Below, one piece after another: positions 25,644 to 63,546 of a stretch of DNA of 64,000 nt (position 1 is the first letter of the stretch; every line of letters begins with the position of its first letter). Source of the DNA: Candidatus Sericytochromatia bacterium (GTDB lineage Bacteria > Cyanobacteriota > Sericytochromatia > UBA7694 > JACMQJ01). The notes under the pieces are model-generated. The model did no database searches, was not told where the DNA came from, and worked only from the letters and a program-made list of their open reading frames with translations. The translations under genes were made by a program, and so were the position numbers. Where the stretch lies: NCBI GenBank assembly GCA_026004035.1, contig BPII01000003.1, positions 35,255 to 99,254 of the forward strand, in the 5' to 3' direction.

Positions 25644-28600
25644 TGAATATATTTCAAAAAATAATAAAATATCCTATTACTATCATTACTTTTTTTTCAA
25701 TAATAATTTCTTATGGTATTTATTGTTTATACAATATCCCAATAGATGCTTTTCCAGATTTGACTAATAATCAAGTATCAATAATAACAGATTGTGAAAG
25801 TATGGATCCTTTGGAAATAGAGCAATTAGTTACTATACCGATAGAAAATGCTATGAGCGGAATACCAAATGTTGATGAAGTTAGGTCTATATCAAAATTT
25901 GGTGTATCGGTAATAACAATTGTTTTTAAAGATAATGTGAAAACATACTTTGCTAGACAATTAGTAAGTGAAAAATTACAAAATGTTTTGTCAAAAATTC
26001 CTCAAGGTATTCAACCTGAAATAGCACCACCTACAACTGCTATGGGAGAAATTTATCAATATGTAGTAGAAGGTAAAAATTATTCAGCAATGGAATTAAA
26101 AACTATACATGATTGGGATATAAAATATCAATTAAAAAAAGTTCCAGGTATAAGTGAAGTAAATACGGCAGGAGGTTTTACAAAAGAATATCATATAATT
26201 CTAGATTTAAACAAAATATTAAAATACAATATATCTTTAAATGAAATAATTTCAGCTATAAGAGAAAATAACAAAAATTTTACAGGTGGAATCATAGAGA
26301 ATAACTCTGAACAATATATAATAAGAGGTATAGGAAAATTAAAAAACATAGAAGATATTAAAAATATTCTAATAAAAAAAACTGACTCATTCCCAATATT
26401 GTTAAAACATATTTCACAAGTTATTTATTCTTATCCAATAAGACAAGGAGCTGTTACAAAAGATGGAAATGGCGAGGTTGTAACAGGTATGACAATGATG
26501 CAAAAAGGAGAAAATAGTCGTAGAGTTATATCAAGAGTAAAAGAAGAAATAAAAAACATACAAAAAACTTTACCTGAAGGAGTAAAAATAATACCATTTT
26601 ATGATCAAACAAATTTAATTGAGCAAACAGTAAATACTGTGAAAACAAATTTAATTGAAGCTGCTTTTCTTGTAATAGCTGTACTTTTATTTATGTTAGG
26701 AAATATCAAAGCTGCTTTAATAGTTTCTATTACAATACCAATATCTATGATGTTTTCTTTTATTGGTATGAGTTGGCTTGGAATATCAGCTAATATAATG
26801 AGTTTAGGTTGCAGTTGATTTTGGAATGATAATTGATAGTTCTGTTGTAATAGTTGAAGATATAATAAAAAAAATTAAGTCATTCAAGTAATGAAAATAA
26901 TGAAAATATTATTATTAGTTCTGTAAAAGAAATGGCAAAGCCTATAATTTTTGGAATACTTATAATAGTAGCTGTATATTTTCCAATACTTTCTCTTGAA
27001 GGGATAGAATACAGAATGTTTTCACCAATGGTATTTACAGTAAAGTTTTGCTCTTTTTGGGCTCATTAATTATTTCTTTAACTTTAGTTCCTGTATTAGT
27101 AAAATTATTTATTAAAGGTAAAGTTTCAGAAGAAGAAAGTTTTATAATAAAACTAATAAAACCTTTTTATAATAAGATTTTAAATATTGCACTAAGAAAA
27201 AAATTTACTACATTAATTATTGTATTAATAATATTTTTAATATCTATTTCAAAATTATTCTTAATAGGAACTGAATTTGTACCAAAAATTAGATGAAGGA
27301 GATATTTTAATAGGAATGGTTTAGTTTGCCTTCTATTTCTCTTAATGAATCTGTAAAAAAGTCCTTGGAAGTAGAAAAAATACTAAAAAAGTATCCAGAA
27401 GTAAAAACAATAGTTTCAAGAACAGGAAGACCAGATTTTGCTACAGATACCATGGGAACACATCAAAGTGATATTTTTGTAATATTAAAAGATAAAAAAT
27501 TGTGGAGGAAAAAATATAACCAAAGATATTTTAATAGAAGAAATGAGTAGAGAATTAAATGAAAAAATAATAGGAACAAGTTTTTCTTTTACTCAACCTA
27601 TTGCAATGCGTCTAGATGAAATGATTTCAGGAGTTAGGTCTGATATTGCTGTAAAAGTTTTTGGGGATTCAGCAGAAGAATTACAAAAAATTGCTGAAAA
27701 AAAATAGAAAAAATTCTAACTACTATTAAAGGAAGTGCTGATGTCAAGTCAGAAAATTTACTTGGTAGTATGCAATTAATCGTTATTCCTAATAGAGAAA
27801 AAATGGCTTTTTATGGAATAAATATAGAAGATATTTCTATTATTTTATCAACTAGCATATCAGGTTTTTAAAAGTTTCTGAACTTATAGATGGTAGAAAG
27901 AGATTTAATATAAGAATAAAGTTTGATTTTAATAATATTAATTTAGAATTAGTAAAAAATATATTAATAAAAACAAGTAAAGGTAATCTTATAAAATTAG
28001 GACAAATTGCTGATATAGAAATAAAACAAGATTTAGACTCTATAAATAGAGAATTTGGACAAAGAAGAATAGTAATTCAAAGTAATGTTAGAGGTAGAGA
28101 TATAGGTTCATTTGTAAAAGAAGCACAAGAAAAAATTGAAAAAAAATATTAAAATTCCTACAGGTTATTATATAGACTGGGGAGGACAATTTGAAAATCA
28201 AGAAAGAGCATTAAAAAAAATTATCTATTGTTTTACCAATTTCAATAATAATAATATTTATTTTATTAATGGCTACTTTCTCATCTGTAAAACAATCATT
28301 AATTGTAATGTTGAATATACCTTTTGCATTAACAGGAGGAATTTTTGCACTCTGGATAAGAAATTTATATTTAAGTGTTCCTGCAATAATAGGATTTATT
28401 GCTCTTTTTGGAGTTGCTGTTTTAAATGGTATAGTTTTAGTATCTACTATAAATAAAAAGATAAATTCTTTTGATAATATAAAAGATATTATAATAAATG
28501 CTTGTAATGAAAGATTAAGACCTGTACTTATGACTGCTATGGTTGCTGGTTTTGGATTTATACCAATGGCTTTATCTAATGGTTCTGGTGCTGAAGTTCA

Positions 28601-28716
28601 AAGACCATTAGCAACTGTTGTTATTAGGGGGCATAATTTCATCAACAATGCTTACTTTAATTGTGTTACCTGTTATATATCTCTTAAGTTTTAATAAACT
28701 TAAGAAAAGTATTTAA
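25643..28716 (+). pseudogene. heavy-metal-type RND transporter (CzcA/CusA family), shattered by about 11 frameshifts
   Basis: The N-terminus ...IPIDAFPDLTNNQVSIIT... is the CzcA/CusA hallmark. By switching frames I could follow the protein to ...RPLATVVIGGIISSTMLTLIVLPVIYLLSFNKLKKSI and a stop at 28714..28716. Frame changes occur near 26810, 26875, 27045, 27290, 27320, 27515, 27700, 27870, 28140, 28225 and 28630. Many are in A7-A8 runs. Confidence 0.85.
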
Positions 28717-34820: not shown

Positions 34821-35864
34821 TTGTCTTTTAGGAAGCTTTTAATTTCAGGAATATTATTTTTGTCTTCATTTTTAGGTTTAAGTTGTCAAGAAGCTTATGC
34901 AATTAATCCAGATATATCAATACCATTAGGACAAATTGCACCTTTTCAAGTACCAGAAGGTATTACAACAGCAATAATTGGTGATGAAAATGTAGCATCA
35001 ATTGTTGTTCCACCAGGTCAAAATAAAACAATGTTAATTTATACTAAAGCACCTGGTATAACAAATATAATAGTTTTTACTGAAAGAACAGGACAACCTA
35101 ATAATTTTGTTGTTGAAGTTCAAGATACAAAAAGAGCTGAACAAATAGTAACAAGAATAAAAGTAGTTGAAGTTTTAACAGGAAATGATGGAAATTTGGG
35201 TATAGATTGGCAAGATTTTATAAGTTTTCAAGAAGCACCGCCAAGTGCTCCTTTTAAATTTGGCTTACCTGTAAGAACTTCTGTCATAGATGCAAAATTA
35301 AATACTCTTATAAATGATAGAAAAGGTAAATTATTAGCTCAACCGACAATAGTATCTTTAAATGGTAAAGATGCTAAGTTTTTATCAGGTGGTGAATATC
35401 CAGTATTAATATATGAAAGAGATAGAGTTAATATTCAATTTAAAGAATATGGTGTTAAGTTAGAATTAAACGCAAAAATAGAAGGTAATGATACTATATT
35501 ATTAACACTAAAACCAGAAGTAAGTTCTATAGACAAAACAAATAGTGTTACAATAGTTGGTTCAGGAACTACAGGTTCAGCTATAATACCAGCATTTGCT
35601 ACAAGAAAAGCTGAAACAACTTTAACATTAAAAGATAATGAATCTATAGTAATAGCAGGATTATTAAATAATTCTCAAGAATATGTTGACTCAAAAATAC
35701 CATTACTTGGTGATATACCATTTTTAGGCTTCTTATTCAAATCAAGAGAATTTAAAGATGTAAGAAGTGAATTAGTTTTTGTTGTAACTCCAAGCATACT
35801 AAAAAACAATAATGTTACACCTGAAAAAAATTATGCTGATGAAGCTCAAAAAATGGGTAAATAA
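34821..35864 (+). CDS. Tad/Flp-type secretin (CpaC/RcpA-like), short form
   Basis: A signal peptide is present. The N-terminal module is LGQIAPFQVPEGITTAIIGDENVASIVVPPGQNKTMLIYTKAPGITNIIVF. The C-terminal secretin core is AQPTIVSLNGKDAKFLSGGEYPV...KIPLLGDIPFLGFLFKSRE...ELVFVVTPSIL. Confidence 0.8.
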   Translation: MSFRKLLISGILFLSSFLGLSCQEAYAINPDISIPLGQIAPFQVPEGITTAIIGDENVASIVVPPGQNKTMLIYTKAPGITNIIVFTERTGQPNNFVVEVQDTKRAEQIVTRIKVVEVLTGNDGNLGIDWQDFISFQEAPPSAPFKFGLPVRTSVIDAKLNTLINDRKGKLLAQPTIVSLNGKDAKFLSGGEYPVLIYERDRVNIQFKEYGVKLELNAKIEGNDTILLTLKPEVSSIDKTNSVTIVGSGTTGSAIIPAFATRKAETTLTLKDNESIVIAGLLNNSQEYVDSKIPLLGDIPFLGFLFKSREFKDVRSELVFVVTPSILKNNNVTPEKNYADEAQKMGK

Positions 35865-37163: not shown

Positions 37164-37787
37164 TTAATCATTTTCTAACATATTTGTAAGATAATAGTAA
37201 ATAGTATTAAAATCAACATCATCTTCGGATAATATTTCAAAAATATTTTGATTTATCTGTTCAATATTAATTAATTCCAATTCATCTTTTAAAGAACTAA
37301 GTTTATAAACTTGTTCTTGACAAGTAAGAATATTAGTTTTTTTTGTTTTCTTATTAGTATAAGTATATCCAAAAAGACGACATATTAAAGGTCTAACTTC
37401 ATATATACTACATTTACCATTGAATAATAAAGGACATTCTATAAAATCTATAACTTCTTTAACTAATTGATAATCATCTAAATAAACATTTTCGTTTTTT
37501 ACTAGCAAATCCCTAAAATATTTCTTTAATTCTTTTAACTTTAGTTTTAATATTTTTATATCATCTTCAGTAAAATTATTTTTTATATATTTTTTTATAT
37601 TTTCCCATTCCATTTTATATATTTGAGGACTACCATAAAACTTACAACATCTATTACAACCTGATATACATTCTATATTAGTATTATTATTTTGAATTTG
37701 ATTTATAGCTTTATTTATATTTAAATATATTTCTTCTAAAGAATTTGAGTAATCTACAGATAGATTTTTAATATTATTTTTTATCAT
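37164..37787 (-). CDS. YkgJ/UPF0153 Cys-cluster protein (CxxCxxCC family, which includes flagellin N-methylase FliB)
   Basis: CISGCNRCCKFYG, then CPLLFNGKCSIYEVRPLICRLFG. Its ATG overlaps the stop of the FliH-like gene (TAATG at 37785..37789). Confidence 0.6.
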   Translation of the reverse strand: MIKNNIKNLSVDYSNSLEEIYLNINKAINQIQNNNTNIECISGCNRCCKFYGSPQIYKMEWENIKKYIKNNFTEDDIKILKLKLKELKKYFRDLLVKNENVYLDDYQLVKEVIDFIECPLLFNGKCSIYEVRPLICRLFGYTYTNKKTKKTNILTCQEQVYKLSSLKDELELINIEQINQNIFEILSEDDVDFNTIYYYLTNMLEND

Positions 37788-39463
37788 TAATTAGAATTTT
37801 CTGAAATTTCTTGAAAAAGAGCATCCAATATTGACAATTGAGTATTTATAGAAATATTATATTTTTCTGAATTTGTACTAATGGAACAATTCCCTTTATT
37901 AATAGTATTACTAGAATTTATAATAAATTCTGGTACATCAGGTAATAAAGCTTTAAAGTAATCTTGTTTTGGTAACACATTATCTAAATCTTGTGGATTA
38001 ACTGTTATTTTAACAGTTCCCAAATCACTTATAGTTTTTAAAGATTTTGCTATAAACTTTTGGGCAGCTTCATCTCTTTTCGTTACAGATTCACTTAATA
38101 CTGATTCAGAAACTTGATAAGCTAATTTCATTATTTTTTCTTCATTTTGATAGACTGCAACTGGTAAAGCTGCATATAGTTTATTTAAAGCATTTAATGC
38201 CTCTTTTAGTAATTCAGAATTTTCTTTTATAGCTTCTTCTTTTCCTTCTTGGTAACCAACATTAAATCCATCTTGAGTTGATGCTTCAACTATATCTTGA
38301 TATTGATCTTCAGCTGCCTGAATTATTCTTGCTGATTCAATATTAGCATCTGATATTATTCTTTCAGCTTCGAGTTCAGCTTCTTTTTTTATTTCTTCGC
38401 CTTTTTGTTCATATTCAGCTATTATAGCTGCTGCTTCATCTTGAGCATAAGCTGATGACTCTATTATTCGCCTAGCTTTTTCCTCTGCTTCTTCTACTAT
38501 TTTCAAACTTTTTTCATAAGCTTCATCTAAAATTTGTTCTCTTCTTTTAATTATATTATTAGCTGTACTAATAACTTGATTATCACTTTCTAGTTTCTTT
38601 TTGTAATATTGTATTGTTTCATCTATATATTGTTCTGCTTCTTGTTGAATTATTTCTAAATCTTTATTTATACGAGCTTCTATCTCTTTTTCTACTTCTA
38701 AAAGCATATTTTCTCTTTTTTTCCATAATTCTTCTCTTTTATATTCAGAATGCTTTTTTAAGAATTTTTCTATTTTTGCGTCAATATCTGATATTAGTTG
38801 ATTTATATCTCTTGTTGGTGCTATATCATCTATAATATGAGATGCTTCTTCTAATAACCTTGCCATATCTTCATTAGAAGCTAAAGCAGATAATTTTTCA
38901 TCTGATATTTCTTTAACATTTTTTCTATATTCTTTTATTTTATCAAAAAGTTTAACATCTACTTTTCCTATGAGTGTTTTATGTTTTGTTTTTTCCCAAT
39001 TTTCTGATTTTTCATCTCCAATATCAATAGAATCTTCAATATCATAAGCAATATTTGTATCTAAATCAGAATAAAAATCATCATTTGTATCAATATTAAA
39101 TTCCGAATCTAAATCTAAATCACTAGTTATTTCAGACTCATAACTATCTTGATAATTATCATAAAGAGGTTCTGTTTCTCCTATTACTACAGGTTCATTT
39201 ATCATTTCAAATTCGTATTCTTCTTGAATGTCATTTTCATCAAAAAGAGTAAAAAATTCATTTTCATCTATTAATGTTGGCTCTTGATTAGCTCCTATAA
39301 GAATAGTTTTACCAATTATAAAAGGTGAATCATCTTCAACTTCAGTTACTTCTTCTTGATTATTTTCTTCATCTAATTTAAGATTTTCTTCTTCAAGAAT
39401 AGTACTAGTTATTTCTATATATTCTATTTCACTCGGTTTTAATAGCATAAAAGTATTAATCAA
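37787..39463 (-). CDS. FliH/SctL-family protein with a long acidic N-terminal extension
   Basis: The central E/A/K-rich helical repeats are AEEKARRIIESSAYAQDEAAAIIAEYEQKGEEIKKEAELEAERIISDANIESARIIQAAE. The C-terminal block is KLAYQVSESVL...VKITVNPQDLDNVLP...INKGNCSISTNSEKYNISINTQLSIL. It parallels E. coli FliH ...LRVHPDDL...HPGGCKVSADEGDLDASVATRWQEL. The protein is 558 aa, against about 230-300 aa for typical FliH. Confidence 0.6.
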   Translation of the reverse strand: MINTFMLLKPSEIEYIEITSTILEEENLKLDEENNQEEVTEVEDDSPFIIGKTILIGANQEPTLIDENEFFTLFDENDIQEEYEFEMINEPVVIGETEPLYDNYQDSYESEITSDLDLDSEFNIDTNDDFYSDLDTNIAYDIEDSIDIGDEKSENWEKTKHKTLIGKVDVKLFDKIKEYRKNVKEISDEKLSALASNEDMARLLEEASHIIDDIAPTRDINQLISDIDAKIEKFLKKHSEYKREELWKKRENMLLEVEKEIEARINKDLEIIQQEAEQYIDETIQYYKKKLESDNQVISTANNIIKRREQILDEAYEKSLKIVEEAEEKARRIIESSAYAQDEAAAIIAEYEQKGEEIKKEAELEAERIISDANIESARIIQAAEDQYQDIVEASTQDGFNVGYQEGKEEAIKENSELLKEALNALNKLYAALPVAVYQNEEKIMKLAYQVSESVLSESVTKRDEAAQKFIAKSLKTISDLGTVKITVNPQDLDNVLPKQDYFKALLPDVPEFIINSSNTINKGNCSISTNSEKYNISINTQLSILDALFQEISENSN

Positions 39464-49020: not shown

Positions 49021-49120
49021 TAATTATTTCATAAATAATAATAATCATTTTATTAATATTCACCTTTTATTAAGTAAAGAAAATATTTTTATTTGCTTAC
49101 TAATTTCTTTGTTAAGTTTA

Positions 49121-49170
49121 TAAAAAACATTAACTTTTAATGCACTATCAATTTAATAAATTGGTATAAG
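49121..49170 (+). repeat. intergenic repeat family B, partial copy (palindrome end only)
   Basis: ataaaaaacattaacttttaatgcactatcaatttaataaattggtataag. The palindrome at 49147..49165 has one mismatch. This copy is inverted relative to the copy at 47300..47422. Confidence 0.7.
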
Positions 49171-51402: not shown

Positions 51403-54148
51403 ACCAGTTTTTACCTATACTTATTGAAACTTTCAATGGAACATTTAAGGTATATATATTTTCCATTATATTTTTAACATTAACTTTTAGTTCTTCTAAT
51501 TCATCTTTATAAACTTCAAATACTAGTTCATCATGAACTTGTAAAAGCATTTTTGAACTTTTATTACTTTCTTCTAAATATTTATCAATTTTAACCATTG
51601 CTAATTTTATTAAATCTGCTGCTGTTCCTTGTAAAGGTGTATTTATAGCCATTCTTTTACCAAATTCTCTAACTGAATAATTAGAGCTATTTAATTCAGG
51701 TATATATCTTCTTCTATTTAACAGAGTTGTTACATAGCCTTTTTCTTGAGCAAATTTTATAATATTTTCTACATACATTGAAACATATTTATATGTTTCA
51801 TTGAATTTTTTTATTATATCTGAAGCTTCACTAACAGAAATATTAAGAGTTTCTGATAATCCATAAGCACTTTGTCCATAAATTATTCCAAAATTAACAG
51901 TTTTTGCAATTCTTCTTTGTTCCTCTGTAATGTCTTCTATATTTTTAATATTAAATATTTCCATAGCTGTTTTAGAATGTATATCTAAGTCATTATTAAA
52001 AGCATCTATAAATATAGGATCACTGCTATAATGTGCTAATAATCTAAGCTCTATTTGAGAATAATCAGCTGAAAGTATTAATTTATTATTATCAGCTATA
52101 AATGCTTTTCTTATTTCTTTTCCTAATTTAGTTTTTATAGGTATATTCTGTAAATTAGGATTGCTTGAAGATAGTCGTCCTGTTGATGTTATAGCTTGAT
52201 TAAATGAAGTATGGATTCTTGAGTTTTTATCTGTTATTTCAAGTAAAGAATCAATATAAGTTGATTTTAATTTGCTTATTTGTCTATAATCAAGTATGTA
52301 TTTTACTATATCATGCTCATTTCGTAATTTTTCTAAAATATTAGCATCTGTTGAATAAGCTTGACTTTTTCCTCTTTTTAATCCTTTTGTACTTATTTTT
52401 AATTCTTCAAATAAAATTGATGATAATTGTTTAGGTGAATTTATATTAAACTCTTTTCCAGCAATTTGATATATTTTACTTTCTATATCTTTTAACATTA
52501 AATCTAAACTACTTGATAAATTTGATAAGTGCTCTTTATCTATTTTTATACCTTCTGACTCCATTTTTGATAATACTTTTATAAGCGGTATTTCAATATT
52601 TTGATATAATTCAATCATGTTCATTTCTTCAAGCTTTTTTCTAAGATAGAAACTTAGCTCAAGTGTTATAGATGAGTCAGCACAAGCGTATCTTGATACT
52701 TCTTCAACATCTATATAATCCATTGTTAAAGCATTTTTACCTTTTCCAATTAATTCTTCTATCCTTGTCATTTTGTAATTTAAATAATGAAAAGCCATTT
52801 CTTTTAAAGCATGAGAATTATTAGGATCTATCAAATAATCAGCTATATACGTATCATCTTTTATACCTTTTAAATCTATACCATATTTACTAAAAACATT
52901 TATTTCAAACTTTATATTATGTCCTATTTTTAAAATATTTGGATTTTCTATTATTTCTTTAAATTCTTTTTTAAAATCATCAATATTTATATTGAAATCA
53001 TAATTTATATGAGATATTGGAATATAAAAAGATTGAAAATTATTACAAATTTTTTCCTTATTATTAGTATCTAAAGAAATTGCAATTCCTACTAAATGAT
53101 TGGTTAAAAAATCTAGGCTTGTTGTTTCTATATCTATTGAAAAATATTTCAGCTTTTTAATAAGGTTAGATAATTCTTTTAACTCATCTGTATTTTTTAT
53201 TATTTTTACATTAATATTTATTTTCTTTTCATTAGAAATTTTATTTTTATTTTCTGAATAAAAAAGAGAGAGTATTTCAGGTAATTCATTTAATAAGCTT
53301 CTAAATTGTAGTCTATTTAATAAATTTCTAATATTTTCTTCGTTTGGTAAATTTAAATGACTTTTATTTAAATCTAAATTAATAGGAGCATTAACATCTA
53401 TAGTAGCTAACTTTTTACTTAAAAAAGCATTATCTTTTCCTGATACTAGTAAATCTTTTAATCTTTTTGATTCAATTTTATCTAAGTTTTTATAAATATT
53501 TTCTAAATCATTGAATTGATTTAATAGTTTAATTGCTGTTTTGGGTCCTAATCCAAATATACCTGGTATATTATCTGATTTATCACCTATTAAAGCTTTA
53601 TAATCTACTATTTGTTGTGGTCCTATTTGATATTTTTCTATTGTTTCATTTATTCCAAACTTTTTTAATGTAGAATCATTTCTATTTGGTAAATAAACAA
53701 ATGTATTTTCATTTACTAATTGAATTAAATCTTGATCACCTGTTATTATATGTGATTTTAAACCTATTTTATTAGCTTGTATTGATAATGTACCTATTAA
53801 GTCATCTGCTTCATAATTATCTAACTCAAAGATAGGTATTTCGAAAGCATTTATTATTTGTGTTATAAATGGTAATTGAATTAAAAACTCTTCAGGTGTT
53901 TCACCTCTATTAGCTTTATATTCAGGGTATATTTCATTTCTAAAAGTTTTTTTTGATACATCAAAAGCTACAACTATATAATAAGGTTTAAATTTTTTTA
54001 TTATATCAAAAAGTATTTTAGAAAATCCATAAGCTGCCCATGTGGGAACATTGTCTTTTGTATGTAAATTCGTCTTTATTAGCGCATGGTATGCTCTAAA
54101 AGCTAAAGCATGCCCATCTATAAATATTATTTCCTGTTTTGAAAGCAT
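51395..54148 (-). CDS. polA: DNA polymerase I
   Basis: 917 aa. It has a 5'-nuclease domain (IDGHALAFRAYHA, GDKSDNIPG), a 3'-5' exonuclease region, and polymerase motifs (DYSQIELRLLAH, RRIAKTVNFGIIYG, QVHDELVFE). The gene is intact. Confidence 0.95.
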   Translation of the reverse strand: MLSKQEIIFIDGHALAFRAYHALIKTNLHTKDNVPTWAAYGFSKILFDIIKKFKPYYIVVAFDVSKKTFRNEIYPEYKANRGETPEEFLIQLPFITQIINAFEIPIFELDNYEADDLIGTLSIQANKIGLKSHIITGDQDLIQLVNENTFVYLPNRNDSTLKKFGINETIEKYQIGPQQIVDYKALIGDKSDNIPGIFGLGPKTAIKLLNQFNDLENIYKNLDKIESKRLKDLLVSGKDNAFLSKKLATIDVNAPINLDLNKSHLNLPNEENIRNLLNRLQFRSLLNELPEILSLFYSENKNKISNEKKININVKIIKNTDELKELSNLIKKLKYFSIDIETTSLDFLTNHLVGIAISLDTNNKEKICNNFQSFYIPISHINYDFNINIDDFKKEFKEIIENPNILKIGHNIKFEINVFSKYGIDLKGIKDDTYIADYLIDPNNSHALKEMAFHYLNYKMTRIEELIGKGKNALTMDYIDVEEVSRYACADSSITLELSFYLRKKLEEMNMIELYQNIEIPLIKVLSKMESEGIKIDKEHLSNLSSSLDLMLKDIESKIYQIAGKEFNINSPKQLSSILFEELKISTKGLKRGKSQAYSTDANILEKLRNEHDIVKYILDYRQISKLKSTYIDSLLEITDKNSRIHTSFNQAITSTGRLSSSNPNLQNIPIKTKLGKEIRKAFIADNNKLILSADYSQIELRLLAHYSSDPIFIDAFNNDLDIHSKTAMEIFNIKNIEDITEEQRRIAKTVNFGIIYGQSAYGLSETLNISVSEASDIIKKFNETYKYVSMYVENIIKFAQEKGYVTTLLNRRRYIPELNSSNYSVREFGKRMAINTPLQGTAADLIKLAMVKIDKYLEESNKSSKMLLQVHDELVFEVYKDELEELKVNVKNIMENIYTLNVPLKVSISIGKNWYE

Positions 54149-54711
54149 TATTTAGTCCATTTTCCACCCGACTCAACTCTTTTTCTAACATTATCAGCTA
54201 ATTTATATAATCCGTTTCTTGATAAATTGTCAAGTATAAATTTTGGAACAGGTAAGCCAAAATCAATTCTACTTCTATAAGTTAATTTCGTATAAATATC
54301 CTTATATTTTTCTAATTTCCAACCACCTTCTATATCCTTTATTTTTCCATCTATTTTTTTAAAATTTATGGTCCAATTTTCTTTATCATATACTCTTCTT
54401 AAGTCATAAGATATATCTATTAAAGGTGGTGATTCTAATTTTACATGAACTATTGAAAATTTATCAGTTCTTGTTTTTACTTTAAATTCTTCCATTGCTG
54501 GCATAAATTTTGTGTAGTTATCATAATCAGTTAAAACTTTCCATACTTCTTCAGGCTTAGCTTTTACTAAAAAAGTAACTTCTGTTGTAGCAATATTGTT
54601 TTTATCTAAAACTTCTTTTATTATAGGTTGCCCACCATATTTTAATTTTTCTTCAGCTATTACTGGATTTATTAAAATCAATAATGTTAGTAAAATAAAA
54701 TATTTTTTCAT
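54148..54711 (-). CDS. secreted SRPBCC (START/polyketide-cyclase-like) protein
   Basis: A signal peptide is present. VWKVLTDYDNYTKFMP and the following beta-rich pattern are typical of SRPBCC. Confidence 0.55.
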   Translation of the reverse strand: MKKYFILLTLLILINPVIAEEKLKYGGQPIIKEVLDKNNIATTEVTFLVKAKPEEVWKVLTDYDNYTKFMPAMEEFKVKTRTDKFSIVHVKLESPPLIDISYDLRRVYDKENWTINFKKIDGKIKDIEGGWKLEKYKDIYTKLTYRSRIDFGLPVPKFILDNLSRNGLYKLADNVRKRVESGGKWTK

Positions 54712-55013: not shown

Positions 55014-55135
55014 CCTATAAGTTTTTAATAAATTACTTGACATAAGAATTTTAGTATAATTTAAATAAAATTATAACTATAAAAAACATTGATTTTTAAT
55101 GTACTATCAATTTAATAAATTGATATTAGTATGTA
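55014..55135 (+). repeat. intergenic repeat family B, full copy, upstream of the 55.2-60.7 kb cluster
   Basis: cctataagtttttaataaattacttgacataagaattttagtataat...gatttttaatgtactatcaatttaataaattgatattag. The perfect palindrome atcaattta-a-taaattgat lies at 55106..55124. TTGACA (55037..55042) and TATAAT (55055..55060) are only 12 nt apart. Confidence 0.8.
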
Positions 55136-55186: not shown

Positions 55187-56326
55187 TTGGAAATTTTTAT
55201 GAAAAATAGCAAAAGCTTTTTAATGTTAATATCTACATTAATAATTTTTTCATGTAGTATAAATAATTCAGTATCTACAGATAAAACAAAATCTTCTAAT
55301 AATGAAATAGTTAATATAAAACCTTCTAATATATCTCATATTGAGTTAAAAAACGATGAAAACTTAATAAAAGATTTTATAAATAATAATCCTGACTTTT
55401 TTCCTTTAGATTTAAATGTTGATAACTCATCTCAAGCTACAGTTCCAAATAATGGTGGAGTTATATTTGCAACAATACCAAATAATGGTGGAGTAATTTT
55501 TTCAGATGATAATGACTCATTTTCTATTAAATCATACTCAATAAAACAATTAAAATTACCAATCAAAAATATTCAAATACCTCAAAGACCTAAATTAATA
55601 GAGAAATTAAAAAATAATATTCCTATCCAATGGACAAGAGAAGTAATAGATAAACCAAGAAGAGAAATAAAAATATATTTTGAAAAAAAAGATAAAGCAA
55701 AAGCTATTGTAAATACCTTTTTCAATAAAAAGATAGTATTAAATTTTGAAAATAAGAGAGAAATAGTTAAAAAATTAAGTGAAGTATCAACAAGAATAGC
55801 TTATTTTACAAAAGAAAATAATAATTGGGTATTAAATAGTGTATCACCATTTGAATTTAGACCAGAAAATAAAACAATTAATGTTAATATAGAATTTATA
55901 AAAATTACAGTGAATTCAAATGATAAAGGAAATATTTTTAATATACCTATAAATGGTTTTATAAATAAAAAAGACATGCCTACTATTAAAAAAGGTTCTA
56001 CTTTAAAAATAGAAGTTAAAGCTATAAATAATGAACCAAATGAAATCCCGCCATTATATGTTTATTTAAGATTACCAGATATTGGAGTAAAAATACCAAT
56101 GTATGATGACGGTAGTTTAGAAGACTTATTTACTGATAAAGAAGGTAAGCAAGTAAGCACAGATGATATTAACGATGATAATATATATACTGCTACAATA
56201 AAGATGAGTAAAAATTTAGGAGTAAATAATATTACAATAGACGCTATATCTTCACTATCATTACAAGATTCTTTGGAAAATGGAGATTATATAAGTAAGT
56301 CTTTTCCAATTATTATTACTCAATAA
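55187..56326 (+). CDS. hypothetical lipoprotein (the real start is probably the ATG at 55199)
   Basis: Signal plus lipobox (LMLISTLIIFSCSIN). An internal 11-aa tandem duplication is present (VPNNGGVIFAT / IPNNGGVIFSD). No family recognised. Confidence 0.45.
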   Translation: MEIFMKNSKSFLMLISTLIIFSCSINNSVSTDKTKSSNNEIVNIKPSNISHIELKNDENLIKDFINNNPDFFPLDLNVDNSSQATVPNNGGVIFATIPNNGGVIFSDDNDSFSIKSYSIKQLKLPIKNIQIPQRPKLIEKLKNNIPIQWTREVIDKPRREIKIYFEKKDKAKAIVNTFFNKKIVLNFENKREIVKKLSEVSTRIAYFTKENNNWVLNSVSPFEFRPENKTINVNIEFIKITVNSNDKGNIFNIPINGFINKKDMPTIKKGSTLKIEVKAINNEPNEIPPLYVYLRLPDIGVKIPMYDDGSLEDLFTDKEGKQVSTDDINDDNIYTATIKMSKNLGVNNITIDAISSLSLQDSLENGDYISKSFPIIITQ

Positions 56327-56422
56327 AATATTATATTTAGCAAAAATATTTTTTTTTCTATAAGCAAGATAAATTTATTTTTTAAGAAAATAATATTGTA
56401 TATAGTTTTTGGAGATTAAAAA

Positions 56423-58222
56423 ATGCAAATACCAGAAAGTATGAAAACAATATGGGAAAATATTACTAATACTAATCAAAAAACAGGTGATGTAAATTCA
56501 GCTCAACTTGAGCAACTTAAACAAGCTGCTAGTTCAGATGGAAAAATAGATGAACAAGAACAAGAATTTATTAATTATGTAGAAAGTAATCTTATGATAT
56601 CTTCAAATAATAATCAGGGTAAAGGATCTAATCCAGTAAGCTTTGTTGATACAGAATTTGGAAAGGTTCCTTCATCAATGATAGAAACTTGGAATCAAGT
56701 CTCAACTGATGGAGTAATAGATGAAGCTGATTTAGAAAAACTTAAACAAGCTGCTGCTCCAACAGGTAAAAATTCAGAGTTTGATAATGATGAAGTAAAT
56801 TTTTTAGCTAATCTAGTAGAAAAAGCTGAAAATGGACAAGTTAGACTTAATAATCCTAATACTACAAAAAAAAATAATTCTTCAATATCTTCTCCATTTG
56901 GTGAAGTTCCTTTTTCATTACAATCAGTTTGGAATCAAATAGTATCAAAAGGTCAAGTATCTTTACAAGATCTAGATAATCTTATAACAGCAGCAACTCC
57001 AAATGAAAAACCTGAAGAAATAGATGAAAAAGAAAGAACTTTTTTATTAAAAATTAAAGAAGCTATTGAAGAAAATAATGGACAATCTGTTTTATTATCA
57101 TCAAATATAAATAAAGCTTCATCACCAACTTTATTGAATTGGCCAGGTTATACTGCAAAAACTAAACAAGCATTAAGAGATGCTTATGGAGAATTCGCCA
57201 TAGGAACAAGAATGCCATTGTTAAGGCAAGATATTGCTTTAGAAGTAGCTAAAGGATTTGGTGTTTCTAGTGTTAGAGAGTTACAATCTATGATAGGAGC
57301 AAAAGTTGATGGAAAGTTTGGTCCTGAAACATATTTTAAAGCAAAAGCTTTTGTAGCAAATCTTATGAATACAAATTCTCAAGATCCAAGAATACCAAAC
57401 ATGTTATCAGTTTTAGGAAATGATATTGAAGTAAGAAGAATGATAGAAATGTATGGAGCTTTTCAAATTAATAATAATCAACAAAATTTAAGGAATCAAC
57501 AACAACCTGTAAATAATGATAAACCACCTGTCAGTATAGGTGATACAGATCCAAATAATCCTGAAGCTATAAAAAGTTTTCAAAATAAGGTAAATTTATT
57601 ATCTAGCATATATAACAATCAGAAAGGAACTAATTTTGAACCTGTTGAGGTTAATGGAAAATTAACAGAATCTTTTGCAGATAAATTAAGAAATATGGAA
57701 CAAACTATTGGAAAGCCTGTAGCACAAGCTATAGCAGAAATAGAAAATGAGTTAAAATCAAAAGGTTTTAGTAAATTAGATAGCAGAAGTCTTAATTTTG
57801 TGAAGATAGCCGATAATGGAATTCAAATAATAGGTGATGCTAAGGATATGGTAAGAATAAATGCAGCAAAAGAATTATTAGCAAAATTAGGATTTAATTT
57901 AACAAATTTTGAAATATCTAAACCTGAAAATCCAGGAGTAAATGGTGATTTAATACTTAAGTCAAACAATATGGAATTAAAAATTTTTGATAACGTTTCT
58001 TTTGAAAAAAGAGATCACAATAAATATGGGGATTTACATATAGTAGGGAAATTTGATAATAAAGATATAGATGTATCTTATTGGGAAAATGATAGAAGAG
58101 GAGAAAAATCTATTAAGCAATTTAATAGATTTCATTTAAAAGCAAAAGTTAATGGTCAGGAATTAGAACCTTTAAGACAAAGTGAAAGTATATTAAGCAA
58201 ACCATTAATTCAAGTTAAGTAA
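56423..58222 (+). CDS. hypothetical protein: 3 x ~75-aa EF-hand/dockerin-like modules, a peptidoglycan-binding-like domain, and a unique C-terminal domain; no signal peptide
   Basis: A GGAG Shine-Dalgarno is present. The modules start at aa 1, 79 and 159 (..P.S....W(E/N)...., DG.ID..(E/D)L..LK.AA, E.D..E..FL). LLNWPGY...VRELQSMIGAKVDGKFGPETYFKAKAFV resembles PG_binding_1. It is a paralogue of the next gene. Confidence 0.6.
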   Translation: MQIPESMKTIWENITNTNQKTGDVNSAQLEQLKQAASSDGKIDEQEQEFINYVESNLMISSNNNQGKGSNPVSFVDTEFGKVPSSMIETWNQVSTDGVIDEADLEKLKQAAAPTGKNSEFDNDEVNFLANLVEKAENGQVRLNNPNTTKKNNSSISSPFGEVPFSLQSVWNQIVSKGQVSLQDLDNLITAATPNEKPEEIDEKERTFLLKIKEAIEENNGQSVLLSSNINKASSPTLLNWPGYTAKTKQALRDAYGEFAIGTRMPLLRQDIALEVAKGFGVSSVRELQSMIGAKVDGKFGPETYFKAKAFVANLMNTNSQDPRIPNMLSVLGNDIEVRRMIEMYGAFQINNNQQNLRNQQQPVNNDKPPVSIGDTDPNNPEAIKSFQNKVNLLSSIYNNQKGTNFEPVEVNGKLTESFADKLRNMEQTIGKPVAQAIAEIENELKSKGFSKLDSRSLNFVKIADNGIQIIGDAKDMVRINAAKELLAKLGFNLTNFEISKPENPGVNGDLILKSNNMELKIFDNVSFEKRDHNKYGDLHIVGKFDNKDIDVSYWENDRRGEKSIKQFNRFHLKAKVNGQELEPLRQSESILSKPLIQVK

Positions 58223-58294
58223 TAGTTAAACTTTTAGCAAGTATTTTTTTTAAAATTATATAATATTGTTAGTTATATATAAAAAGGAGTTTTT

Positions 58295-60670
58295 ATGGAA
58301 ATACCAAAAAGCTTAGAAAACACTTGGAACTCTGTTATAAGTGATAATAAAATAACAAAAAGTGAATATAAATCATTAGTTGATGCAGCAATGCCAAGTG
58401 GTAGTCCTAATGAATTAGAACAAGATGAAGAACAATTCTTACTTACTCTTAAATCTGATTTAGAGAAAAATGGTATAGCAAGAGGTGATGTTCCTGTAAG
58501 TGCTTTAAGTTTTTCTTTTAGTAATCAAAATACAGAAAACATAAATGCTCAACAAAACAATAATCAGCAACAAAATGTAGAAGCTAGTAATAATAGTTCA
58601 TTTTTACCATCTCCAAATTTTCCTGAAGTAAAGATATTATTAAACTGGCCTGGATATAATAAGGAAGTTAATACAGCTTTTACAAAAGCTTTTAATGAAC
58701 CAAAACCTGTCGGTAATAAAGTTCCTGTATTATCATCTAGTAAAGCTAATAATATAGTGGAAGCTTTAGGATTTGGAACTGTTAAACAATTACAACAACA
58801 AGTTGGTGCAAAACAAGATAATAAGTTTGGTCCAGAAACATTTTTTAGAACAAAAGCTTATGTAGCAACACAAATTAATAATTCTTACGAAGTTGAAAAA
58901 TTAAATCAATTAAAATCAATATTGAATGTTTTAGGTAATGATGATGATGTTGGTAAAATGAAAGTTGTAGTAGATCAAAGAATACAAGTTGCAAGTGAAT
59001 ATCAAGCAAATAAACAAAAGATAGAAACTTATTTTAACAATGTAAATCAAATATTAGGTTCTACTGATCCTAAAAATATGGAAGCTTTACTCAATGCAAA
59101 AAATAAATTACAAAAAGAATTCGATGATTTACCATCTAAAATAAAAGCTATACCTGAAGTTGCTGATGTTCATAAAAAAGCTATGCAAACTGTTGAAAAT
59201 GCTATAAAAGCTTTGGAAAATGAAGGTATTGGAAAGCAAAAAGCAGAGTTATCAGGAAAAATAAACAATATAGTAAATGAATCTGTAACAGAAGGTTTAA
59301 AAACAGGTGATACATCTAAAGTTACAGCAGGTAAAGATAAAATAAATAAAGAACTTGATAACTATCCTAAAGTTAAAGATTCAGATGAGATAAAAAATGT
59401 TGTTAAACAAGCAAATGAAGTATTAGATAATGCAGTTAAAAAAATAAATGATATTAACAATTTAATAGCAAAAAAAGATTGGACATCAGAAGATAAAGCA
59501 TTGGCTGATAAATATATGTCTGAATTACCAGCAGGAACTTTAAAAGATAAATTAGCTAAGGCTATTGAAGCTCAAAGTGATGCAGCAAAGTTAAAAGAAA
59601 AGAATAGAGCAAATCTTCCTACAGTAAGAGAAGGACTAAAAGATGTTATTGGAAATGGTTTCTTTAATTTAGAAAATTCAGATGGTACAAAAGGAATGCT
59701 TCAATTAATTGCTAAACAAGGATTACTTGATGAAGCTATAACCAAAATGAATGTTGATGATCAAACAAGAGCAATAAAAATATTAACTAAAGATATTAAA
59801 TTTGATAAAATGAGTAATTCTGATAAATTTAATTTAGCAATAGCAAGAAAAATATATGAAAATTTAAGCAAAAGTGCTAATGTAGATGATGATATAAAGA
59901 AAAAAGTTTTACCACATCTTAAAAAAGAAGTAGCACCAAATGATTTTTCTTCATTTGAAATAGATGATAAAACTTATATCAATGGTATGAAATTTGCTAT
60001 TGGTTCTGATAGAATTGGTAGTGAGCAAGAAGCAGCATTAACTATGGCAAGAGCAATAATGAATGGTGAAGTTTCTAATAAATTACTTGGTCAATTAAAT
60101 AGATATGAACTTAATGATTTAACTAAATTTATTGAAAAGAAAGCAGGAAAAGAAGAAAAAGATTTCTTTTTAAAAAATACGGTAGCTAGTGCTTATAATA
60201 ATGGTGTTGCTGTTAATATAGAATCATTAGATAGAGCTGAAAAAGCTAAAGTAATTAAAGGTGTTTTAGATATTGATAATGTAAATGAATCTAAAGTTAG
60301 TGACTTACTAAAAAAGGCTGGAAAGAAAACAATATTTGAAACAGTAAATAATGAAAATCTTTCAGATAAACAATTAGCAATAATAGGTAAGCATGTTAAT
60401 GGTGATGATATGGCTGACGAACCAAAAGTTGGTGCTAAAATTTTAGGTGGTATGATAAGAACATACAATAAAGATCAAGAAAACTCTCCTGTAAAAATAG
60501 AAAATATAAGAAAATATATAGATCAAGTAGATAATGATTGGTGGGAAGATGATGATACTATGAAGTTAGTTATAAATGAATTAGGAGATGGACCAGGAAG
60601 TGAATATGAAAAGTTTCAGAAATTAGCACCTGCTACATTAGACAGAATAAGACAAATTGCTGATTATTAA
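58295..60670 (+). CDS. hypothetical protein: 1 EF-hand/dockerin-like module, a peptidoglycan-binding-like domain, and a long helical C-terminal region; no signal peptide
   Basis: An AAGGAG Shine-Dalgarno is present. MEIPKSLENTWNSVISDNKITKSEYKSLVDAA...EQDEEQFLLTLKSDLEKNG parallels the modules of the preceding protein. LLNWPGYNKEV...VKQLQQQVGAKQDNKFGPETFFRTKAYVA parallels its PG-binding-like segment. Confidence 0.6.
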   Translation: MEIPKSLENTWNSVISDNKITKSEYKSLVDAAMPSGSPNELEQDEEQFLLTLKSDLEKNGIARGDVPVSALSFSFSNQNTENINAQQNNNQQQNVEASNNSSFLPSPNFPEVKILLNWPGYNKEVNTAFTKAFNEPKPVGNKVPVLSSSKANNIVEALGFGTVKQLQQQVGAKQDNKFGPETFFRTKAYVATQINNSYEVEKLNQLKSILNVLGNDDDVGKMKVVVDQRIQVASEYQANKQKIETYFNNVNQILGSTDPKNMEALLNAKNKLQKEFDDLPSKIKAIPEVADVHKKAMQTVENAIKALENEGIGKQKAELSGKINNIVNESVTEGLKTGDTSKVTAGKDKINKELDNYPKVKDSDEIKNVVKQANEVLDNAVKKINDINNLIAKKDWTSEDKALADKYMSELPAGTLKDKLAKAIEAQSDAAKLKEKNRANLPTVREGLKDVIGNGFFNLENSDGTKGMLQLIAKQGLLDEAITKMNVDDQTRAIKILTKDIKFDKMSNSDKFNLAIARKIYENLSKSANVDDDIKKKVLPHLKKEVAPNDFSSFEIDDKTYINGMKFAIGSDRIGSEQEAALTMARAIMNGEVSNKLLGQLNRYELNDLTKFIEKKAGKEEKDFFLKNTVASAYNNGVAVNIESLDRAEKAKVIKGVLDIDNVNESKVSDLLKKAGKKTIFETVNNENLSDKQLAIIGKHVNGDDMADEPKVGAKILGGMIRTYNKDQENSPVKIENIRKYIDQVDNDWWEDDDTMKLVINELGDGPGSEYEKFQKLAPATLDRIRQIADY

Positions 60671-60674
60671 ATTA

Positions 60675-62365
60675 TTAATCTCTGAACTTAACAGATTTTA
60701 TAATTCTAAGTCCTAGAATACCAGCAAATATATAGCCACCTATTCCTAGAACCATTGTTATAGGAACACCATAAATAGTAATTGTTTCTTTTGTGGATAT
60801 TATAAATATTGCTGAACTTATAATTAAAGATGAAATCACTAATCCAGATGTAAGTTTTTGTATTATTTCTTCCCAAATTTTTAAGTATTTTTCTTGTCCA
60901 ACATCTTCATGTTTTAATTTTATATCTCCATTTTCAAAATCATTTAGTAAGGATATCATTTGTCCTGGAACTTCTCTTGACCATTGATAAAATTGTAAGC
61001 TACTTTTCAGAAAATCTTGTCCTAGTCTTTGAGCTGACCATCTTTTTTTAATTAATTTTAATACAAATGGTTGTGCTTCTTTTTCCAAATCTAAATCAGG
61101 ATCAAGAGTACGTCCTATACCTTCTATTGTAAGAATAGCTTTACCCATTAGTGTATAATCATTGGGTATTTTTATTTTATTTTTTTTTGCACCTTGGATT
61201 AATTCATTAAGTATTTCACTAAATTGAATTTCTTTTAAAGGTAATCCTTCTATTTTTTGTAAAACTTCAGAAGTTTCTTTTTTAAATTGTTCAAAATCTA
61301 CTTTTTGAGTTTTTTTACCTAAATTATATAACGACCTTGCAACTCCTTCATGATCTCTTGTATTCAGAGCTATTACAAGTTCGGCCATTTTATCTCTCAT
61401 TGCTTCATCTAAAAAGCCAACCATTCCTAAATCTATAAAAGCTATAGTATTACCGGGTAAGGCAAATATATTTCCTGGGTGAGGATCAGCATGAAAAAAT
61501 CCATTATCAAACACCATATATAAAATTGCATTTAGAGCTATCTTTGCTAAAAGTTTTTTATCACAACCGATTTCTTCAGCTCTTGTTATTTTAATACCTT
61601 TAATTCTCTCCATAGTAAAGACTTTTTTACCTGAGAGTTCTTTATATACTTTAGGAATCTTTATTTGGTCATGATATTTAAAAGCTTCAGCAAATCTTAA
61701 AGCATTTCTTAATTCATGTGAATAGTCTAATTCTCTTTTTACTGCTTTTTCAAATTCTCTTATAATTCCTGTTGGATCAAATAATTTTAAATCAGGTATT
61801 TGATTTTCAGCAAGTCTAGCTAATGTATACATTAAATCAATATCTTTTTGTATTATTTGAGCTACATTAGGTCTTTGAACTTTAACAACAACTTCTTCAC
61901 CTGTTTTCAAAGTAGCATTATAAACTTGTCCTATTGATGCTGTAGCAATTTGTTTCTCATCATAAGTAGCAAATAATTCTTCTATAGGCTTACATAATTC
62001 TGTTTCTATTTGATTTCTTGCTTCCTCAAAACTAAAAGGTTGGTACATTATCTTGTAAATGTTTAAATTCTTCAATAAACTCTTCAGGTATTAAATCTGG
62101 TCTAGTGCTCATTATTTGACCAAGTTTTTATAAAAGTTGGTCCTAATTCTTGTAAAAACAAGTAATGCTCTTTTTGCTAAAGTAATATTTTCTAATTCTT
62201 CTTCTACTGATTCCTTTCTTAATTTACTTATTAAATTTCCTAATGCTGTATCTGAATGTGTTATTTGTTCTACAATTTGACCCAAAGCCATGCTTTATTA
62301 ATACACCTAATATTTGGCTAAAATCTGTTTATATCATTTATAGCACTAATAGGATTGAAAGCCAT
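60675..62365 (-). pseudogene. ubiB: UbiB/ABC1-family atypical kinase, at least 4 frameshifts in the N-terminal third
   Basis: ORF 60675..62075 contains ASIGQVY, VVKVQRP, HADPHPGN and IDLGMVG plus C-terminal TM segments. Upstream pieces in other frames read MAFNPISAINDINRF, SQILGVLIKHGFG, ...[38 protein letters not shown]. The ATG at 62365..62363 overlaps the stop of the aminotransferase gene. Confidence 0.8.
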
Positions 62366-63546
62366 TATTTAAATGCCTTATTAAATCTCTCTATTGCTTT
62401 TTGTAAATTTTCCATAGAATCAGCATAAGATAATCTTAAATGATTTGAAGCTCCAAAAGCTTCTCCTGGAACAGTTGCTAAATAATATTTTTCTAAAAGA
62501 AACTTAGCTATTTCTTCGGAAGAATTACCATAACCTTTATTTAAAAGTTCTTCAACTGAAACTAACATATAAAAAGCACCTTGAGGATTATTAACTTTTA
62601 AACCTTTTAATATTATTTAATTCTTTATACATAAAATCTCGTCTTTTTTTAAACTCATCTCTCATTTCAATTACTACACTTTGATTACCTTCAATAGCTG
62701 CTAAAGAAGCTTTTTGAGAAATAGAGCAAGGATTAGAGGTAGTTTGAGATTGTATTTTAGAACAAGCATCTATTATCCATTTTGGACCTGCTGCATAACC
62801 TATACGCCAACCTGTCATAGAATATGCTTTTGAAACACCATTTATAGTAATTACTCTATTATAAAAATCTTTAACTGATGCTATACTAAAGTGTTTTATA
62901 TTATCATAAATTAAATATTCGTATATCTCGTCAGATAATATAAATATATTTTCATTATCCTTTACAATTTCAAACAAGTTTCTTATTTCTTCTTCTGAAT
63001 AAACTGTTCCTGTTGGATTTGAAGGAGAGCAAAATATTATGAGTTTAGTTTTTATTAGTAATAGCTTTTTCTAATTGTTTAGGTGATATTTTAAAATCAT
63101 TATCTATACTTGAATTTATAATTACAGGCTTACCATCAGCTAACTTTACCATTTCAGGATAGCTTACCCAATAAGGAGCAGGTATTATTACTTCATCACC
63201 TTTATTTATCAAAGATAATAAAACATTTGCAATAGCTTGCTTACCACCATTACTAACAATTACTTGTTCAGGGCTATATTCTATATTATTATCTTTTTTT
63301 TAATTTATTACAAATAGCTTTTCTTAATTCCAAAATACCATTATTAGCAGTATATTTCGTAAAACCTTCATTTATTGCTTTTATTGCTGCTTGACATATA
63401 AAATCAGGAGTAGGAAAATCAGGTTCACCACCAGATAAGTTTACTACATCATAGCCATCTTGAGCCATTTGCTTAGCTTTTCCAATTATAGCTAAAGTTT
63501 TCGACTCTTCTATATTTAAAGCTCTATCTGAAAGAATATTAAGCAT
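62365..63546 (-). pseudogene. class I pyridoxal-phosphate aminotransferase (aspartate aminotransferase-like), at least 3 frameshifts
   Basis: The N-terminal piece reads GEPDFPTPDFI...YTANNGILELR. The middle pieces read ...GDEVIIPAPYWVSYPEMV... (read by hand in 62980..63290) and SDEIYEYLIYD...INGVSKAYSMTGWRIGYAAGP. The C-terminal piece reads VPGEAFGASNHLRLSYA. Confidence 0.8.

Follow-up and report, generated by a model that had tools for sequence, protein, structure and literature searches.

Here we report an analysis of two adjacent genes, P2 and P3, in a 64,000-nucleotide (nt) stretch of the genome of a Candidatus Sericytochromatia bacterium (contig BPII01000003.1 of assembly GCA_026004035.1, positions 35,255 to 99,254 of the forward strand), referred to below as the window. 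With an upstream gene for a lipoprotein-like protein they form three co-oriented open reading frames (ORFs) in strongly AT-rich DNA (G+C ∼25%), spaced by 96 nt (lipoprotein-like gene to P2) and 72 nt (P2 to P3), and only 4 nt separate the P3 stop from the end of a convergent ABC1/UbiB ORF, a layout that an original prediction from the same DNA had described correctly. The prediction also credited all three ORFs with good Shine-Dalgarno sequences; this holds for P2 (GGAG, 8 nt 5′ of the ATG) and P3 (AGGAG, 5 nt 5′ of the ATG) and not for the lipoprotein-like gene, where the site is weak (GGAAA). An independent public assembly (L016, a 6.9-kb contig from Logan DRR290133) encodes an identical P3, as checked by translation, flanked by 375-amino-acid (aa) and 599-aa genes and a convergent downstream gene in the order and with the spacing seen in the window; given this matching layout, the three ORFs are apparently not assembly artefacts. 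On sequence evidence, P2 and P3 are tandem paralogues of a rare, uncharacterised modular family restricted to Candidatus Sericytochromatia, an uncultured, non-photosynthetic sister lineage of the oxygenic cyanobacteria.

That P2 and P3 are paralogues is evident from BLASTP (E=1e-31, 30% identity). Their best alignment pairs residues 2-272 of P3 with residues 161-390 of P2 and not with the P2 N-terminus, because P2 has three copies of the N-terminal unit. Local hidden Markov models (HMMs) built from homologues define four modules, M, B, C2 and C3, which were mapped at 12 loci. M is a unit of ∼60 aa that begins at Met1 (consensus vP.sLk..W..v..DG.I...dY..L..AAaPn..d.E.D..E..FL..LK) and occurs three times in P2, once in P3 and up to nine times in relatives. 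B, of ∼108 aa, usually follows M in family members (consensus LLNWpGYn...n.Af..AfG....G...P.L....a....eaFG.gsv.qlQq.vGAKqD.KFGPETyFkaK..va..in.....l..l...l..LGnD.ev..M). Met1 and the start M(E/Q/D)(I/V)P.(S/T)(L/M) are kept in ∼50 homologues; the shared start of P2 and P3 that had been singled out in the original prediction is real, and is the first copy of the repeated M rather than a special N-terminal tag. The C-terminal domains, C2 in P2 and C3 in P3, are unrelated to each other by BLASTP and local HMMs, as had been predicted.

A sequence search of 5.8 billion proteins yielded 10 relatives of P2 (orthologues n=4, 39-67% identity) and 24 of P3 (34-85% identity, mostly full length), and every named homologue comes from a metagenome-assembled genome of Candidatus Sericytochromatia. 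Scanning 185,579 species genomes in GTDB recovered four loci, all of them from Sericytochromatia, and a scan of metagenome contigs with the B profile added four short contigs. Since the relatives are so few and all the named ones belong to Sericytochromatia, we regard the family as rare and lineage-restricted.

Loci L003, L004, L005, L012, L013, L023, L027 and L028 each have two or three paralogues in tandem, and this arrangement is what is conserved. The order at L003, L005, L012 and L013 is an M-C3 gene without B, an Mn-B-Mn gene of 810-1170 aa with or without C2, and an M-B-C3 gene; L004 holds two P2-type genes and a P3, and the window, L027 and L028 hold P2-P3 pairs. At L001, L006, L014 and L015, P3 stands without another paralogue. 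All-against-all clustering of the ORFs at 10 loci revealed no conserved neighbour besides the paralogues, ribH being found 3′ of P3 in three fetched loci only (L001, L002 and L003). The M+B cassette also occurs on its own, as proteins of 170-245 aa, and joined to other C-termini, among them a calpain-type cysteine protease (Peptidase_C2, P0067) and helical repeats.

The lipoprotein-like gene is not part of this arrangement, and the proposal that the three genes form a unit has to be given up. Its product begins with MKNSKSFLMLISTLIIFSC, comprising a signal peptide and a lipobox-like Cys that is the sole Cys of the protein, and has no match in Pfam or NCBIfam. None of its four homologues (P0038-P0041) adjoins a P2/P3 relative; the closest precedes an aromatic lyase and the others precede a ∼200-aa partner. 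The two closest genomes keep the P2-P3 pair with a different gene upstream, the gene 5′ of P2 at L027 being a divergent sigma-70 factor, and the Joint Genome Institute (JGI) sample that contains the L027 pair carries its lipoprotein orthologue on a separate contig (L007). A three-gene operon that includes the lipoprotein is ruled out by these unrelated contexts and by the other upstream genes of the closest P2-P3 pairs. As the lipoprotein homologues are unlinked to P2/P3 relatives even in the closest relatives, the trio is an accident of this genome. Within the lipoprotein-like gene, a tandem 33-nt duplication at 55436-55501 encodes (A)T(V/I)PNNGGVIF twice.

PG_binding_1 is a three-helix peptidoglycan-binding domain, and the original prediction had likened the block shared by P2 and P3 to it. 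P2 matches the Pfam model (PF01471) with 17.6 bits (E=0.0045; gathering threshold 23) over model positions 32-54 of 57 only, and P2-type proteins score 13.7-23.0 bits, the orthologue P0002 being borderline at 23.0 and the others lying at 13.7-16.7. We searched 1.84 billion representative proteins with a B profile (alignment A3), using no word index, and obtained 95 matches at E≤1e-3, 87 of them not already in earlier searches. PF01471 is carried by 62 of these 87 and PG_binding_3 by 49; many also carry amidase, VanY, CHAP, NlpC/P60, M23 or GH25 domains, and the matches beyond such wall-domain proteins are more M+B proteins. The likeness is borne out, then, in that the B profile retrieves PF01471 proteins, and not at the level of Pfam itself, where P2 falls below threshold and P3 has no match. 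The best PDB match of B, 7dnp, is not significant (E=0.79); in its alignment the B sequence VKQLQ..VGAKQDGKFG.ET lies on the peptidoglycan-binding part of a GH108/PG_binding_3 protein. Viral contigs scanned with the B profile gave only actinophage proteins with canonical PG_binding_1 repeats, VKGVQRAVGAKPDGRFGLET, which share the motif VQ..VGAKPDGRFG.ET with B. In the AlphaFold2 (AF2) model of P3, B consists of five helices, the last three of which (163-170, 180-195 and 200-212, with a predicted local distance difference test score (pLDDT) of ∼90) come in the order expected of a PG_binding_1 three-helix bundle; because Foldseek with full-length models found nothing at E≤1e-3, we infer this fold from secondary structure only. 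Because the out-of-family matches of the B profile are almost all PG_binding_1 proteins, we conclude that B contains a PG_binding_1-like core within a larger new domain, with putative peptidoglycan binding.

A fully canonical PG_binding_1 domain is present in P0010, P0055, P0058 and P0063, related proteins that also lack signals. A second signal-less and nearly Cys-free family (P0010, P0011 and P0054-P0063; loci L017 and L025) combines a low-complexity N/Q/G/Y-rich N-terminus, a canonical PG_binding_1 domain, 6-9 repeats of ∼35 aa and a B-like domain. The repeat, QQELxWA..L..KV..GY.PT..E...Y..I..R, has weak YozD-like Pfam matches. Since the small M+B protein P0050 ends in this repeat, the second family and the P2/P3 family evidently swap modules.

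The M module is EF-hand-like, and its membership of that superfamily is not demonstrable. AF2 models it as helix-loop-helix-loop-helix with a short beta bridge from the first loop to the following strand, as in EF-hand pairs, and its loop consensus ..V..DGxIxxxD fits the EF-hand at positions 5 (D), 6 (G), 8 (hydrophobic) and 12 (acidic). All its Pfam matches are below threshold (EF-hand_7, EF-hand_1, TerB and DUF533; EF-hand_7 at 15.6-23.2 bits, gathering threshold 30), its matches among PDB sequences (parvalbumin, CIB1, troponin C, caltractin and myosin light chain) have E=0.3-3, and Foldseek matches the P2 model weakly to calbindin D28K, the CDPK calcium-binding domain and sorcin.

C3 is an all-helical domain of ∼560 aa modelled by AF2 with high confidence, with several invariant motifs that include DVIGNGFxNLEN..GTKGM.QLIAKQGLL and AALTMAR; the loop at 443-456 is invariant yet has low pLDDT. 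The AF2 model of C2 starts with a helical segment and continues as a beta-rich domain. Neither domain has a meaningful relative in Pfam, NCBIfam, PHROGs, PADLOC, PDB sequences or fold searches: full-length P2 and P3 family profiles against PDB sequences gave noise only (E>0.2), and Foldseek with the AF2 models (both against PDB, P3 against BFVD) returned no match at E≤1e-3. For P3, Foldseek lists alpha-solenoids of a generic kind and phage proteins with long helices; the HEAT/ARM-like resemblance of C3 is at noise level. We also considered C3 as a lytic transglycosylase, its GTKGMLQL and AYNNG recalling the GLMQ and AYNxG motifs of SLT domains, and ruled this out: the two motifs lie ∼165 aa apart, which is the wrong spacing, there is no catalytic E-S motif at the right distance, and no SLT match was obtained in Pfam, PDB or Foldseek.

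Table 1. Positions of the P2 and P3 genes, their modules and the flanking genes in the window.
Feature	Position	Strand	Basis or remark
Lipoprotein-like gene, 375 aa from ATG (TTG alternative at 55187)	55199..56326	+	Neighbour only, outside the conserved unit
P2, 599 aa, M-M-M-B-C2	56423..58222	+	ORF; domain map from local HMMs; AF2 mean pLDDT 69.5
P2, three M modules, aa 1-63, 81-140, 161-220	56423..57082	+	Module HMM (hmmsearch); AF2 helix-loop-helix-loop-helix each
P2, B domain, aa 234-341, PG_binding_1-like core (VRELQSMIGAKVDGKFGPETYFKAKAF)	57122..57445	+	Pfam, profile searches
P2, C2 domain, aa 366-599, alpha/beta, no relative found	57518..58219	+	Local HMM, AF2
P3, 791 aa, M-(disordered linker)-B-C3	58295..60670	+	ORF; AF2 mean pLDDT 84
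P3, single N-terminal M module, aa 1-62	58295..58480	+	AF2, local HMM
P3, B domain, aa 112-223, five helices	58628..58963	+	AF2, B profile
P3, C3 domain, aa 229-791, all-helical, solenoid-like, no relative found	58979..60667	+	AF2
ABC1/UbiB-type kinase gene, convergent	60675..62075	-	Pfam ABC1 E=7.5e-73; boundary marker outside the unit

The lipoprotein-like gene probably starts at the ATG rather than at the TTG. Just 5′ of it lies one copy (55078-55129) of a 52-nt intergenic repeat with a palindrome (ATCAATTTAATAAATTGAT), 90% identical to a copy at 49119-49170; this confirms the repeat reported upstream of the cluster in the original prediction, to whose composite ‘A+B repeat’ it probably belongs. 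The intergenic regions before P2 (56338-56400) and P3 (58232-58270) have in common TTAGCAA(A/G)(A/T)ATTTTTTTT ... AATATTGT, which might serve both paralogues as a promoter or regulatory element. Neither a generic sigma-70 promoter scan nor a terminator scan nor folding of the intergenic stretches gave a signal above shuffled background, and Rfam had zero matches over the whole window. P2 and P3 are intact among several conserved window genes that are broken (25643-28700, 292-1903, 13113-14072 and 62365-63546): acrB changes frame repeatedly past residue ∼390, two overlapping ORFs make up the Met-tRNA synthetase gene, the TldD/PmbA gene is apparently truncated, and the ORF fragments at 62365-63546, judged from translations alone, resemble parts of a single aminotransferase gene. 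Either the genome is a reduced, AT-rich one and these are true pseudogenes, or the breaks are homopolymer sequencing errors.

The original prediction had remarked that P2 and P3 lack a classical export signal, and this is correct. The maximum Kyte-Doolittle mean of any 15-mer is ≤0.93 in both proteins, which leaves neither a hydrophobic N-terminus nor a transmembrane-like segment, and because every ORF call begins with the earliest start codon that follows an in-frame stop, neither gene has room for an upstream extension. Over the first 40 aa of ∼60 family members the 15-mer maximum stays below 1.0 and no RR motif occurs; as no member has a 15-residue window with a mean above 1.5, there is no signal peptide or membrane span anywhere in the family. 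Classical export signals are otherwise normal in this organism, since they are carried by the neighbouring lipoprotein and by the divergent upstream SRPBCC protein (54148-54711), whose signal peptide is ordinary.

The composition of the proteins is unusual. P2 and P3 together contain no Cys where 10.6 would be expected (P=2e-5; mean Cys content in the window's other 47 ORFs, 0.77%), the core family has ∼2 Cys in ∼35,000 residues, the isoelectric points of the two proteins are acidic (5.25 and 5.58), and relatives have long Pro/Thr/Ala/Gln-rich linkers between modules. Loss of Cys, acidity and a layout of anchor plus variable domain are expected of extracytoplasmic proteins that are exported unfolded, such as flagellins, type I substrates and S-layer proteins, and a conserved N-terminal cassette with variable C-terminal domains is usual in wall-anchored proteins (SLH, LysM and CWB2). 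Parts related to export or motility are encoded nearby, unlinked to P2 and P3. At 37787-39463, 17 kb from the pair, the window encodes an unusually long acidic protein of 558 aa with a C-terminal FliH domain, and at 34821-35864 a short secretin with a T2SS-T3SS_pil_N domain (Tad/Cpa-type); the OEP-HlyD-AcrB genes at 23248-26818 are a resistance-nodulation-division (RND) efflux cluster with a frameshifted acrB, and not a type I secretion system. A literature search on flagella or motility in Sericytochromatia gave nothing that bears on the P2/P3 family.

Our best reading, which we put forward tentatively, argues from the observed architecture, distribution, absence of signals and exclusion of Cys to Sec-independent export of P2 and P3 and a wall-associated scaffold function. 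The two proteins would exit the cytoplasm by a route independent of both Sec and Tat, and B would attach them non-covalently to the peptidoglycan layer. The M modules may bind Ca2+ or provide protein-protein docking and in either role would connect the paralogues, and C2 and C3 would be structural or scaffolding parts in the envelope. A bolder form, which we think unlikely as it stands, would make the M+B cassette the targeting and anchoring unit of an undescribed Sec-independent pathway that delivers Cys-free modular proteins to the Sericytochromatia wall, where the paralogues would assemble via M into a lineage-specific wall-associated superstructure.

Several results count against export and wall attachment. 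A direct Pfam match to PG_binding_1 is found in none of the 22 P3-type proteins, P3 included, B covers only about half of the Pfam model, and P2 scores below the gathering threshold. When B was compared by hhalign with seven canonical PG_binding_1 domains that stand at the N-termini of second-family proteins, the result was negative (probability 1%), and Foldseek with full-length models gave nothing at E≤1e-3 and no domain-level match. By inspection of the consensus, positions 1 and 3 of the M loop are not acidic, and as acidic ligands are missing at these EF-hand positions Ca2+ binding by M is doubtful. No export signal or machinery was found, and no secretion genes were linked in ∼12 loci; by the marks of type I secretion, the family has no RTX match in Pfam and the loci examined have no linked ATP-binding cassette (ABC) or membrane-fusion protein genes. 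Even the scarcity of Cys suggests export without being proof of it.

The strongest competitor, plausible and in our judgement still doubtful, is a cytoplasmic scaffold, for example in cell shape, division or polarity, in which the PG_binding_1-like core of B would have been co-opted for protein-protein or precursor binding and M and C3 would build the scaffold. The original prediction had itself named cytoplasmic proteins with a misread domain as its alternative. The absence of any signal peptide, transmembrane segment or linked secretion gene is what such a protein would display, B is a divergent domain that stays under the Pfam threshold, and C3 is like the generic HEAT/ARM solenoids typical of intracellular scaffolds, at noise level only. 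There is also a precedent in Caulobacter SpmX, whose muramidase domain acts in the cytoplasm as an interaction domain. However, near-total exclusion of Cys over ∼35,000 residues has no obvious cytoplasmic reason, Pro/Thr-rich linkers and the layout of cassette plus variable domain are more typical of envelope proteins, and the related signal-less proteins P0010, P0055, P0058 and P0063 carry PG_binding_1 in its fully canonical form.

Improbable, to our mind, is a family of secreted polymorphic effectors with M, or M+B, as a trafficking domain and C2, C3, the calpain-type protease and the helical repeats as payloads. It would account for M always beginning at Met1 and for the joining of M+B to unrelated C-termini, Peptidase_C2 in P0067 among them, as well as for the solitary 170-245-aa proteins, and N-terminal modules are 42-45% identical across paralogue types compared with 36-40% between N-terminal and internal ones. 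In contrast to hypervariable payloads, C2 and C3 are orthologously conserved at 50-85% identity across the class; the loci examined have no immunity-like small gene downstream and no linked secretion system, and M, repeated internally up to nine times, is unlike a trafficking signal.

The original prediction raised, as one possibility, export to the periplasm through the flagellar type III secretion apparatus, as for FlgJ; this now lacks specific support and seems quite improbable. The lack of a Sec signal, the FliH-domain protein in the window and a flagellar rod-type gene that adjoins the array in one of ∼12 loci would agree with it, whereas the N-terminus is predicted to form a folded module (pLDDT ∼86, and 84-89 for residues 1-30) and is an internally recurring repeat unit rather than a disordered signal, the N-terminal module is only modestly more conserved across paralogues than the internal ones, Pfam scans reveal no flagellar-domain homology, and the other ∼11 neighbourhoods have no flagellar genes. 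A prophage origin, with P2 and P3 as wall-binding proteins of a virion such as signal-less internal virion or ejection proteins, is nearly excluded: signal-less PG_binding_1 is common in phage lysins and podovirus internal virion proteins and tail lysozymes are among the top BFVD matches for the P3 model (E=1.7e-3 to 0.15, TM-score 0.1-0.18), but these fall short of significance and reflect long helices of a generic kind, PHROGs gave nothing significant (zero matches for P2 and one at E=0.008 for P3), no phage genes lie nearby, the neighbours in several Sericytochromatia loci are ordinary chromosomal genes (e.g. ribH, radical-SAM, polA and ubiB), and the viral contig scan returned only unrelated actinophage PG_binding_1 proteins.

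To our knowledge almost nothing has been established about the cell envelope of Sericytochromatia, and a lineage-restricted family of four domains, of which M, C2 and C3 are without database relatives, is of interest in that setting. The combination of a wall-binding-like motif with the lack of both an export signal and Cys opens a testable way into the question of how the wall is built or decorated in these bacteria or, alternatively, how a wall-binding fold came to be reused in the cytoplasm. If export holds true, the family would point to an unrecognised secretion route; if it does not, it would join SpmX as the second case of a wall-related fold taken over for use in the cytoplasm. On a practical level, the definitions of M, B, C2 and C3 could seed new family models.

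No described system matches the architecture of P2 and P3 in searches of Pfam, NCBIfam, PHROGs, PADLOC and PDB and with Foldseek, and the original prediction, which had recognised none, is upheld across domain, structure, phage and defence-family searches. The nearest domain is PG_binding_1 itself, as found in wall hydrolases, L,D-transpeptidases and phage endolysins, with which B has the core motif (V/I)..LQ..(V/I)GAK.DGKFGPET...K in common. Unlike PG_binding_1, B is without the second DG..G..T half-repeat and sets the core in a 108-aa five-helix domain that opens with a conserved LLNWPGY, and unlike PG_binding_1 proteins P2 and P3 have neither a signal peptide nor an attached hydrolase. M resembles EF-hand pair and dockerin modules in its ∼60-aa helix-loop-helix-loop-helix layout with DG at positions 5-6, a hydrophobic residue at 8 and an acidic one at 12; it differs from them in its below-threshold matches and irregular second loop, and from classical EF-hand pairs in occurring as single units between long linkers. 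As far as B has its predicted fold, the proteins share with SpmX a wall-related fold that has no export signal and is joined to low-complexity linkers, whereas SpmX has C-terminal transmembrane helices and a complete lysozyme fold and P2 and P3 have no transmembrane segment and a binding-type motif only. Caulobacter RsaA is a signal-less, N-terminally anchored surface protein exported by type I secretion. In contrast to RsaA, P2 and P3 are without RTX nonapeptide repeats and without linked ABC transporter or membrane-fusion genes, their C-termini are predicted to be folded rather than to form a loose secretion signal, and their putative anchor is peptidoglycan and not lipopolysaccharide; they nevertheless resemble it in having no N-terminal signal peptide, an anchoring region that starts at residue 1, an acidic and Cys-free composition, large size and possibly Ca2+-binding repeats.

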